From the sequence record PQ438391.1: DNA of 64,000 bases. One strand, 5' to 3'. The translations under genes and the position numbers were made by a program. The notes below the pieces were generated by a model, which ran no database searches, was not told where the DNA came from, and saw nothing but the letters and a program-made list of their open reading frames with translations. This document shows, in pieces, positions 62,039 to 63,963 of the stretch. How positions within the stretch are numbered: position 1 is the stretch's first letter; each line of letters begins with the position of its first letter. The DNA is from Escherichia phage vB_Eco_T-01.

Positions 62039-62929
62039 ATGTCAGTAGTAATTAATAATGTCAATGCAGTAATTAAATCTTTAGTTAATAAGAAAATGAT
62101 GAATGAATGGACTGTACTTCGTCGTGGAGAGCCAGATAAATTTTTTCATAGATTTAACCCAACTTTGGATTTGAATGTTATTGACAGAGATGTTCATGCT
62201 GAAATTTTAGATAAATTTAAAGTTGATATTGGGTTTGGATTAGATAAACATTTACAACGAACAAACGGATCTGGAATGAGTTTATCTAATCGCATTATGA
62301 AAGCCCTTAATAAAATTGGAGCATTGTCTCGTATTAACGCGAGTGAAATCCTTCGCAATTATAATAAAGGATACGACCTTTATGGTCGACTAATGCCGAA
62401 ATTATCATTTGACCAAATGATTGCGGATTTGTGGGAAAATCAACGACGATTATTAGCATTAGGCGCTCGATTAGCTAAAGGTCTAGATAAACAAATGATT
62501 TTTAAGACCAATAATACAGAAGACCTTAAATGCTTTAAATTTAGTATTCGCGGAGATGATTATTACATCAGAGCTCGCTCTACAGATTATGTTAATATGG
62601 GACATCATCTCTGTTTAGCTTTTGAAGTTTTAAAAGAAGCCGGAACATTAGAATATTCGTCTGGTGCAAAATGCCCGATTGGTTCAAGTTGTATTTTAAT
62701 TTATCGCCAGGATGAATCCAGTTCATCTAAATTACCTACAAAACCTGTACCAGTTCGTAGTAACGAAAAACATTCTGAACAAATTGATTATTTTAATAAG
62801 CAAATTGAAGAGCTGAATATTTCTATTCAACAGTATGACGATGAAATTTTCAGACTATCTGGATTGAGTAGTAAAGTTAAATCTGAGCGTGAAAAGTTAA
62901 TTAAAATTATTGATTTACTTAAATCTTAA
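62039..62929 (+). CDS. hypothetical protein with C-terminal coiled coil, paralogue 1
   Basis: 296 aa from ATG 62039; 'LDLNVIDRDVH' block shared with next ORF. Confidence 0.55.
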   Translation: MSVVINNVNAVIKSLVNKKMMNEWTVLRRGEPDKFFHRFNPTLDLNVIDRDVHAEILDKFKVDIGFGLDKHLQRTNGSGMSLSNRIMKALNKIGALSRINASEILRNYNKGYDLYGRLMPKLSFDQMIADLWENQRRLLALGARLAKGLDKQMIFKTNNTEDLKCFKFSIRGDDYYIRARSTDYVNMGHHLCLAFEVLKEAGTLEYSSGAKCPIGSSCILIYRQDESSSSKLPTKPVPVRSNEKHSEQIDYFNKQIEELNISIQQYDDEIFRLSGLSSKVKSEREKLIKIIDLLKS

Positions 62930-62937
62930 GGAACACC

Positions 62938-63963
62938 ATGAAAACTCGTTCTCAAATTGAAGATATGGTTCGTAATGCCAGCTATACTCGTGATGTTATG
63001 ACATTTTTGTGCCAAAATAATTTAGACCCTGATAAAGTTAATCGTGATATTCACTTTAAGTATATGAATAGCAGTGAATGGTTACGTCATTTTAGTAAAG
63101 CGGGATATATTACACAAATGACTGCTCGTGAGCAGCTCACCGATTTCTGTAAAACTATTGATTATAAAAATCCTCTATTTGTTCAAGGCGTTGGTCAAAG
63201 TAAGGTCGATTTATCATCTGGATTTTTCAATCCGAATCATTATCGTATTGAATGGAGATTTATTGCTCTGTTCCGTAGACAATTAAAGCAAATTTTGTCT
63301 ACTGCTAGTCGATTAAAAGGTTCTGATATTAACTTAAAGAATCTTAAATTTGATGGTTATACTCTTCAGATGGAAGTAAGACCGTTAAAAGAAAATAATA
63401 GAACTGCACGAATTAGCTTTAAACCTAATACAAAAAATTCTCTTTCAATTTGTGAATGCCTTAAATCACAGTTGACAGAAGCATTTAAGTATATGGATGT
63501 TGTTGCTGCTGTTCAATCTAAGATTTTACCTCGTTTTGAACGATTTAAATTAGACACAACAACATATGAACTTGATATGGTTGTTTCATTTAAATATGAT
63601 TTTTTGAGAAAGGACGAAGTCCCGCAAGAGAAAAAGCAGGAAGTACAAGATAACTTAAATTTAAATTTATCCAATTACTTATCAAACGATCCTAAATTTT
63701 GGATGTATAGTTCAGGTAATAAAGATGCATGGAAATTTAATAAAGTGAATTTTCTTCCTATTGAAAATCCGAGTCTTAAACCTGTTGAAAAATGGCATGC
63801 AGATGCGATTGAGAAGTCTATCAAGGCAGTAGATGATGAACTCGTTAAAGCAACTAATGAAGTGTTAGAAGCTGAAAAGATGCTAGAAAAAGCTCAAGAA
63901 AAAGTAAAAAATCTCACGAAGCAACGTTCTAAATTGAACAACGCACTAAATGCACTGAACTAG
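62938..63963 (+). CDS. hypothetical protein with C-terminal coiled coil, paralogue 2
   Basis: 341 aa; 'LDPDKVNRDIH' block and C-terminal coiled coil. Confidence 0.55.
   Translation: MKTRSQIEDMVRNASYTRDVMTFLCQNNLDPDKVNRDIHFKYMNSSEWLRHFSKAGYITQMTAREQLTDFCKTIDYKNPLFVQGVGQSKVDLSSGFFNPNHYRIEWRFIALFRRQLKQILSTASRLKGSDINLKNLKFDGYTLQMEVRPLKENNRTARISFKPNTKNSLSICECLKSQLTEAFKYMDVVAAVQSKILPRFERFKLDTTTYELDMVVSFKYDFLRKDEVPQEKKQEVQDNLNLNLSNYLSNDPKFWMYSSGNKDAWKFNKVNFLPIENPSLKPVEKWHADAIEKSIKAVDDELVKATNEVLEAEKMLEKAQEKVKNLTKQRSKLNNALNALN

Follow-up and report, generated by a model that had tools for sequence, protein, structure and literature searches.

The phage-defence protein Dsr1 is a nicotinamide adenine dinucleotide (NAD+)-degrading enzyme (NADase) with a SIR2 domain, and its sensor, which it has in common with Avs7, recognises the phage major capsid protein (PMC13581612). 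As late as August 2026, DSR1 was still termed poorly characterised (PMC13464706). In the work of Srikant et al. (eLife 2022, PMC9391042), a T4 clone with a deletion had lost the ability to plate on strain ECOR17 and regained it when dsr1 was deleted in that strain. In the same study, plasmid-borne dsr1 protected MG1655, and T4 nrdC.5, called an early gene by these authors, restored infection on dsr1+ cells when provided in trans. NARP3 counters DSR1 through the rebuilding of NAD+; in the literature that we could search, no dedicated anti-Dsr1 factor other than NrdC.5 is reported. Here we analysed a 64,000-nucleotide stretch of Escherichia phage vB_Eco_T-01 (PQ438391.1; hereafter the window), in which two adjacent open reading frames (ORFs) at 62039-63963 are orthologues of nrdC.6 and nrdC.5 of T4. 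We consider it fairly probable that these are early, co-transcribed genes of an ancient tandem family, with NrdC.5 acting as an oligomeric blocker of Dsr1 and NrdC.6 as a sister factor.

Two known systems are close enough for comparison. DSAD1 of Bacillus phage SPbeta, a functional analogy only, is likewise a phage protein neutralising a defence-associated sirtuin NADase: it binds DSR2 and opposes activation by a virion protein. The host differs, as do the target (DSR2 versus Dsr1) and the trigger (tail tube versus capsid protein), and no sequence or fold similarity was seen: a search with NrdC.5 returned no Protein Data Bank chain at E <= 1, the presence of a DSAD1 chain in that library being unverified. 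In T4 itself, the counter-defence genes tifA, dmd and adfA ('anti-toxin-antitoxin island'), which cluster in accessory regions, are, like the genes studied here, non-essential early accessory genes, each defeating one host defence and lost in genome-reducing deletions. Unlike the diverged paralogues of one family that make up the nrdC.3 to nrdC.6 neighbourhood, those three genes are mutually unrelated.

Identity of the two genes

The window is a segment of a Tequatrovirus (T4-like) genome. About 500 phage records contain sequence 90-98% identical to bases 61600-64000 (97.7% for Tequatrovirus genomes by megablast), and the gene order across 58220-63963 is colinear with nrdC.11,.10,.9,.8,.7,.6 and.5 in the T4 and teqskov maps. 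The two genes are adjacent on the + strand, where an earlier sequence-only reading of this DNA had placed them.

62039..62929, + strand: nrdC.6 orthologue, 296 aa, full-length form, ATG preceded by a GAGG Shine-Dalgarno site
62938..63963, + strand: nrdC.5 orthologue (DUF7235), 341 aa, ATG preceded by AGGA

The product of the first gene is 94% identical to T4 NP_049704 over the first ~258 residues and matches phrog_2257 over residues 1-296 (E 6e-150), so that synteny and a full-length profile match both identify it as NrdC.6. The source database assigns PF26899 to all of its homologues; this assignment is taken from there, as PF26899 is absent from our local Pfam copy. The second product is 95% identical to T4 NP_049703 over its full length, aligns from residue 1 to 341 with positions 1-307 of the DUF7235 profile (PF23882; 410.1 bits against a cut-off of 30) and matches phrog_2351 (E 1e-171). 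Its gene occupies the orthologous Tequatrovirus slot between nrdC.6 and nrdC.4, as in T4 and teqskov, in the same early-gene context. Relative to the T4 protein, the allele for which anti-Dsr1 activity was shown, it differs by 16 substitutions and by small indels, most of them around residues 26-52 or within the linker. By sequence and synteny, then, the two ORFs are orthologues of catalogued T4 genes.

The copies of nrdC.6 in T4 and in the window hold the same position and differ at their ends. The T4 reference (NC_000866) has a 1-nt deletion at the equivalent of ~62816 (codon ~260; GCTGAATATT to GCTG-ATATT). This frameshift alters the last ~37 codons, removes the heptad helix and adds 16 unrelated end residues, giving a 275-aa product. 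Most nrdC.6 homologues in the database are 296 aa long, as is the intact window copy with its heptad helix. The T4 sequence is either a truncated laboratory allele or an error in the reference.

Many GenBank records label these ORFs 'thioredoxin', an identity that we rejected because neither ORF matches any thioredoxin model in Pfam or NCBIfam. The same label is found on ORFs from nrdC.3 to nrdC.11 in many phage records, and none of them has a thioredoxin domain; it looks like a carry-over from the 'nrdC.' gene-name prefix. Neither protein was matched by any solved structure, NCBIfam model or PADLOC model.

Ancestry of nrdC.3 to nrdC.6

The sequence-only reading had described the two genes as adjacent paralogues, and in the direct sense this did not hold. 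The best BLASTP match between NrdC.6 and NrdC.5 had E = 0.21, the Smith-Waterman score of 36 was no better than that of shuffled sequences (mean 36.7, p = 0.5), and hhalign of the two family alignments alone gave a probability of 0.4% over the full length; recognisable paralogy was rejected because all three results were non-significant. PHROGs and Pfam also place the two proteins in separate families. The N-terminal block offered as evidence of paralogy proved to be of no value:

62165..62197, + strand: LDLNVIDRDVH, nrdC.6 residues 43-53, neither conserved nor significant
63022..63054, + strand: LDPDKVNRDIH, nrdC.5 residues 29-39

The two segments have 5/11 identities and a BLOSUM62 score of 32, and an ungapped 11-mer scored at least as high in 6.9% of shuffles. 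In the wider nrdC.6 family from other genera the segment reads PSTKEVVEKVL, and in nrdC.5 the motif is only partly conserved. We discarded it as evidence of homology on both counts, chance-level score and lack of conservation in the nrdC.6 family; it also lies outside the blocks that carry the deeper similarity.

That deeper similarity appears when intermediates are included. On sequence comparison the closer paralogues of nrdC.5 are nrdC.4 and nrdC.3, just beyond the end of the window: in Smith-Waterman comparisons with shuffles these similarities were significant, NrdC.5 scoring z 4.2 against T4 NrdC.3 and z 3.2 against NrdC.4, and NrdC.3 scoring z 9.2 against NrdC.4. In PHROGs, phrog_1435 is common to nrdC.3 and nrdC.4, and phrog_26858 is matched by nrdC.4 and nrdC.5. 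An all-against-all phmmer search yielded weak links below the noise floor set by the nrdC.10 and nrdC.11 controls (E ~0.04), with the bridging alignments in the protein body. One bridging block reads LNKIGALSRINASEILRNY in NrdC.6, LRHFSKAGYITQMTAREQLTDF in NrdC.5 and LRNTGILTRIKANNRLRHY in an Enterobacter phage; a second is a helix with A/S-R-L-x-x-G-x-D directly before the beta module.

These links were then examined with the last 70 residues of each protein removed. Searches with jackhmmer (filters off, inclusion threshold 1e-3) were run against 318 sequences that included 228 unrelated phage ORFs as well as reversed and shuffled family members. Starting from a Klebsiella phage protein (Kleb_84), the first round recovered the Enterobacter protein (3e-72) and NrdC.5 (2e-5), the second a Yersinia phage protein (Yen_94, 7e-4), and later rounds NrdC.3 and NrdC.4, Moon_89 and lastly NrdC.6 (6e-4 to 8e-4). 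None of the unrelated, reversed or shuffled decoys in this database was recruited. A search from NrdC.6 reached Yen_94 independently, at 5e-4 directly and 5e-12 after one iteration.

Profile comparisons by hhalign gave the same picture. The tail-less nrdC.6 family aligned with a profile of NrdC.5 and its Klebsiella, Enterobacter and Citrobacter relatives at a probability of 87% (P 4e-6), and with the same profile enlarged by five more relatives at 93.5% (P 2e-7, 128 columns). At full length, its alignment with the whole nrdC.3/4/5 branch reached 97.0% (P 1.3e-10, 215 columns). Control pairs with the nrdC.10, nrdC.11 and phrog_4750 families gave at most 0.5%. These alignments run through colinear blocks in which each family is at its most conserved. 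Similarity driven by the coiled-coil tails alone was rejected because the links in the body remain without the last 70 residues.

Taken together, these sequence comparisons make it very probable that nrdC.3, nrdC.4, nrdC.5 and nrdC.6 descend from one ancestor. The split between nrdC.6 and nrdC.5 would be ancient (~15% identity), and the family link is supported only through the other blocks and the intermediates; the word 'paralogues' stands in this deep sense. The genes themselves are known, and the link among nrdC.3 to nrdC.6 and their counterparts in other genera is apparently unreported.

Arrays in other T4-like phages

We compared the region that follows the conserved AAA gene nrdC.10 in nine further phage records and in teqskov. 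Between nrdC.10 and nrdC, most of the sampled Tevenvirinae genera and Acinetobacter phage Acj61 carry 1-4 tandem ORFs of 276-343 aa, whose tails end alike (…L..A[LI]..L[KN]). T4 NrdC.4 and NrdC.3 and the proteins Kleb_84, KMB19_b, Moon_89 and Yen_94 resemble the window pair in length class, helical head, 'A/S-R-L-x-x-G-x-D' helix, beta module, Pro-Val-capped heptad tail and position in the nrdC.10-nrdC slot. They differ in sequence, with identities of 15-25% or less, and a genome has between 1 and 4 copies. No array lies beside nrdC.10 in the Aeromonas and Cronobacter phages sampled. We set aside as unrelated to the nrdC.3-nrdC.6 family the ORFs Aer_30 and Aer_31 of Aeromonas phage and the proteins of phrog_4750 (KMB19_a, Kleb_85 and Yen_100).

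Two further observations concern these regions. The phrog_4750 protein, of ~260 aa and lacking a coiled-coil tail, is encoded in the array region of a Karamvirus (L004, 14683-15456), a Klebsiella phage (L005, 14286-15074) and a Tegunavirus (L009, 12630-13421), directly upstream of an array member in the first two and ~1.5 kb upstream in the third (hhalign <=0.2%). Separately, a hybrid ORF, P0161 (299 aa; 3 contigs of up to 167 kb), corresponds over residues 1-129 to NrdC.5 145-273 (125/129 identical) and is NrdC.3-like in the remainder, with …AWKFNKVN joined to MLFKHARKLF… at the junction. This hybrid implies deletion or recombination between array members that removed nrdC.4.

Domain build and predicted structures

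A common build unites the proteins encoded by nrdC.3 to nrdC.6. The N-terminal domain is helical and contains two conserved helix blocks; a small beta-hairpin/helix/beta-hairpin module and a variable linker come next, and the chain ends in a heptad helix of ~55 residues that bears a Pro-Val cap. In the window, the elements of this build map as follows.

62288..62377, + strand: nrdC.6 homology block i (NRIMKALNKIGALSRINASEILRNYNKGYD), matched to nrdC.5 residues 46-75 in BLASTP, hhalign and phmmer alignments
62408..62512, + strand: nrdC.6 homology block ii, a helix with NQRRLLALGARLAKGLDKQM, invariant columns in the family alignment, aligned to its equivalents in nrdC.5, nrdC.3 and Yen_94; the most conserved block of the family
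62534..62704, + strand: nrdC.6 beta-hairpin/helix/beta-hairpin module, residues 166-222, from AlphaFold2 (AF2) secondary structure and hhalign to the nrdC.5 module
62744..62926, + strand: nrdC.6 'PVPVRSNEKH' cap and C-terminal heptad helix, residues 236-296
63073..63162, + strand: nrdC.5 homology block i (SEWLRHFSKAGYITQMTAREQLTDFCKTID), from sequence and profile alignments
63250..63357, + strand: nrdC.5 homology block ii (EWRFIALFRRQLKQILSTASRLKGSDINLKN...), from sequence and profile alignments
63364..63591, + strand: nrdC.5 beta-hairpin/helix/beta-hairpin module, residues 143-218, from AF2 secondary structure of modest confidence, colinear with the Kleb_84 family
63604..63771, + strand: nrdC.5 linker, residues 223-278, variable and modelled with low confidence, richer in indels among Tequatrovirus variants than any other part
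63772..63960, + strand: nrdC.5 'KPVEKWH' cap and 56-residue C-terminal heptad helix

Structures were modelled as monomers only. The AF2 model of nrdC.6 has a mean predicted local distance difference test score (pLDDT) of 75.7 and places C-terminal helices at residues 243-272 and 278-295; that of nrdC.5 has a mean pLDDT of 49.7, and its helix at 285-340 is the only confident part. The order of elements is alike in both: helical head, beta-hairpin, helix, beta-hairpin, disordered linker and long helix. Each tail fits one continuous heptad register, the fraction of Leu, Ile, Val, Met or Phe being 0.73 at a/d positions versus 0.15 elsewhere in nrdC.6 (p=0.0008) and 0.69 versus 0.07 in nrdC.5 (p<0.0002). 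Both gene products are accordingly predicted coiled-coil proteins, which bears out the sequence-only reading on this point.

A Foldseek search with the nrdC.6 model returned uncharacterised proteins of ~300-335 aa from T4-like phages of Acinetobacter, Pectobacterium, Enterobacter and Klebsiella (E 5e-7 to 6e-4), two consecutive Acj61 entries among them, and unrelated proteins only from E ~1e-2 upward. There was no nrdC.5 entry among these matches. The nrdC.5 model matched T4-like proteins of ~330 aa and then tail-completion, tail-terminator and head-tail-connector proteins (E 2e-3 to 1e-2, 120-150 columns). We did not build on the tail-protein matches, because the query model has a pLDDT of 50 and the better nrdC.6 model gave no such matches; they may be an artefact of the model. 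They are of interest because DSR-type sensors respond to virion proteins.

Selection and divergence

Across three Tequatrovirus genomes, the gene-wide ratio of non-synonymous to synonymous substitution rates (dN/dS) was 0.05-0.15 for nrdC.6 and nrdC.5. Both are real coding genes under ordinary purifying selection within the genus. Between genera they diverge rapidly: Tequatrovirus and Mosigvirus proteins are 37% identical for NrdC.6 and 29% for NrdC.5, against 80-85% for NrdC.8, NrdC.10 and NrdC.11. Each of the two genes has its own Mosigvirus orthologue, which makes their split older than the genera. A profile of NrdC.5 and the Klebsiella group found only 17 representatives in 1.84 billion clustered proteins; together with the divergence between genera, this points to a family confined to T4-like phages and with fast turnover.

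Early transcription and neighbouring genes

Early promoters had been proposed for the pair. Both are early genes, as proposed, and non-essential, and neither has a promoter of its own; one is probably shared upstream of nrdC.8.

60985..61013, + strand: putative T4-type early promoter, (G)TTTAC-N17-TGgTACTAT, 9/12 with TG extension, upstream of nrdC.8
61041..61568, + strand: nrdC.8 orthologue, 175 aa, first gene of the unit (phrog_2274, E 1e-110; T4 synteny)
61624..62031, + strand: nrdC.7 orthologue, 135 aa, predicted membrane protein (phrog_2547; T4 annotation), its stop 8 nt before the nrdC.6 start
63964..63992, + strand: putative T4-type early promoter, (G)TTTAC-N17-TGgTATAAT, 10/12 with TG, directly after the nrdC.5 stop

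The consensus scan that located these promoters found 38 sites against 29.7 ± 4.9 expected, only a mild enrichment. Gaps of 8 nt, with Shine-Dalgarno sites, separate nrdC.7 from nrdC.6 and nrdC.6 from nrdC.5. Terminator-like sites on the + strand were absent between nrdC.8 and nrdC.6, and within nrdC.5 there was one weak 5-bp match (63128). From this layout, nrdC.8,.7,.6 and.5 probably share one early transcript starting at the 60985 promoter. The promoter at 63964-63992 would drive nrdC.4, which lies beyond the window in the order of teqskov and T4.

Several neighbours have features of their own. The tail of NrdC.8 is also a heptad-like helix (…RQNTLRKFEERLKTVLA) with a weak likeness to that of NrdC.6 (z 2.8); its body has no link to the nrdC.3-nrdC.6 family, and, in contrast to NrdC.5 and NrdC.6, it retains 85% identity between genera. 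For nrdC.7 (61624-62031), dN/dS between the window and T4 is ~1.06 (14.5 non-synonymous versus 3.5 synonymous changes, small counts) and 0.3-0.5 in other pairs, much above all neighbours. The nrdC.11 gene encodes a nucleotidyltransferase (RlaP/phrog_388), and nrdC.10 (59553-60578) an AAA/STAND-like ATPase (phrog_1250). This ATPase is kept far beyond T4-like phages (1311 phage records), with identity falling to 35-40% in jumbo phages such as 121Q and Agrobacterium Atu_ph07.

A model for NrdC.5 and NrdC.6 and its alternatives

At 95% identity to the T4 protein, NrdC.5 of the window would likewise overcome Dsr1. In the model that we favour, NrdC.5, produced early, would form oligomers by way of its heptad tail and bind Dsr1, most likely at the capsid-sensing domain or lobes. 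Dsr1 would thereby be kept untriggered when the major capsid protein accumulates late in infection, much as DSAD1 blocks DSR2, to which it bears no kinship in sequence. The globular head would provide target specificity and evolve in an arms race, and the tail would provide oligomerisation. By homology, a weaker line of reasoning, NrdC.6 may be a related factor, in counter-defence or host interaction, that acts on another target. Three features of NrdC.5 fit a Dsr1-binding protein: it has no enzyme-like domain, its modular build resembles that of a binder, and its head diverges rapidly. In calling the pair diversifying host-interaction factors of a function not recognisable from sequence, the sequence-only reading was right in part. 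The T4 orthologue of nrdC.5 counteracts Dsr1 and the proteins diverge rapidly, but gene-wide dN/dS shows no diversifying selection; and the sequence does not by itself reveal a function, but that of nrdC.5 was already published.

A number of observations weigh against this model. The literature searchable here contains no NrdC.5 mechanism and no physical binding to Dsr1, the published result being a single genetic complementation; it gives a function for nrdC.5 only and makes no mention of nrdC.6. Searches of the literature under DUF7235, PF26899 and the phrog ids found nothing, and a PADLOC-DB search gave no defence or anti-defence profile matches. Gene-wide positive selection was not seen in either gene by dN/dS among the three Tequatrovirus genomes. 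As the T4 reference nrdC.6 lacks the tail, intact NrdC.6 is dispensable in laboratory hosts. On the side of ancestry, jackhmmer drew in NrdC.6 by a narrow margin (6e-4 to 8e-4 versus the threshold of 1e-3), the tail-less hhalign comparison of the nrdC.6 family with the NrdC.5 family only was not significant (13%, P 0.002), and with so poor an nrdC.5 model the case for a shared fold depends on sequence profiles and on secondary structure predictions.

The strongest of the alternatives concerns NrdC.6, and we regard it as quite possible that this protein is not a counter-defence factor at all and serves instead in host takeover, regulation or superinfection exclusion, its kinship to NrdC.5 saying little about its role. 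At ~15% identity to the nrdC.5 branch, NrdC.6 could have taken on another function, the gene is probably co-transcribed with that of the predicted membrane protein NrdC.7, and the truncated copy of reference T4 has no known phenotype. Yet NrdC.6 shares its superfamily and its array with a proven counter-defence gene, diverges between genera at a similarly rapid rate, is non-essential and is restricted to T4-like phages.

It is somewhat less likely, though still a possibility to be reckoned with, that NrdC.5 beats Dsr1 indirectly, by masking or modifying the trigger (major capsid protein or prohead), by altering NAD+ metabolism or by shifting the timing of infection. The published evidence for NrdC.5, genetic rescue alone, is compatible with such action, and other phages defeat NAD+-depleting defences, DSR1 included, by rebuilding NAD+.

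We think it improbable that nrdC.6 and nrdC.5 are non-homologous, having converged on a helical head, a small beta module and a coiled-coil tail, with profile links due to chance or composition. The direct tests were all negative, the two databases keep the families apart and the jackhmmer inclusions are near threshold. Against convergence, tail-less hhalign probabilities reach 87-93.5% with controls at 0.5% or below, and no reversed, shuffled or unrelated ORF was recruited. The aligned blocks are moreover colinear and the most conserved of each family, the array is syntenic across genera, and in Foldseek the nrdC.6 model matches proteins from the arrays of distant genera.

A recent tandem duplication with copies diverging under positive selection, as the sequence-only reading would have it from two adjacent same-strand genes of similar length and similar tails, is refuted by the separate Mosigvirus orthologues and the pairwise statistics, and also sits badly with the dN/dS of 0.05-0.15 and the chance-level motif.

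Significance

The basic picture is unchanged by this analysis: the genes were known, and it is well established that phage accessory regions are rich in counter-defence genes. What is added is the family link of nrdC.3 to nrdC.6 across genera and the domain map that accompanies it. If the four genes are indeed diverged tandem paralogues, nrdC.3, nrdC.4 and nrdC.6 become three candidates for further counter-defence factors. The map (two conserved helix blocks, the beta module and the putative oligomerising tail) would then serve for mutagenesis, and the wide variation of these often mislabelled 'thioredoxin' ORFs between T4-like genera would be explained. A bolder proposal, which we rate as rather unlikely, is that nrdC.3-nrdC.6 form a counter-defence array, in which an ancestral sensor-blocking protein was tandemly duplicated and the head of each copy adapted to its own immune sensor of the host. 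Various capsid-sensing sensors of the Avs7/Dsr1 type, a large family fused to more than 20 effector types, could be the targets. If such an array exists, the host range of T4-like phages would be set by how many copies and which alleles it contains.

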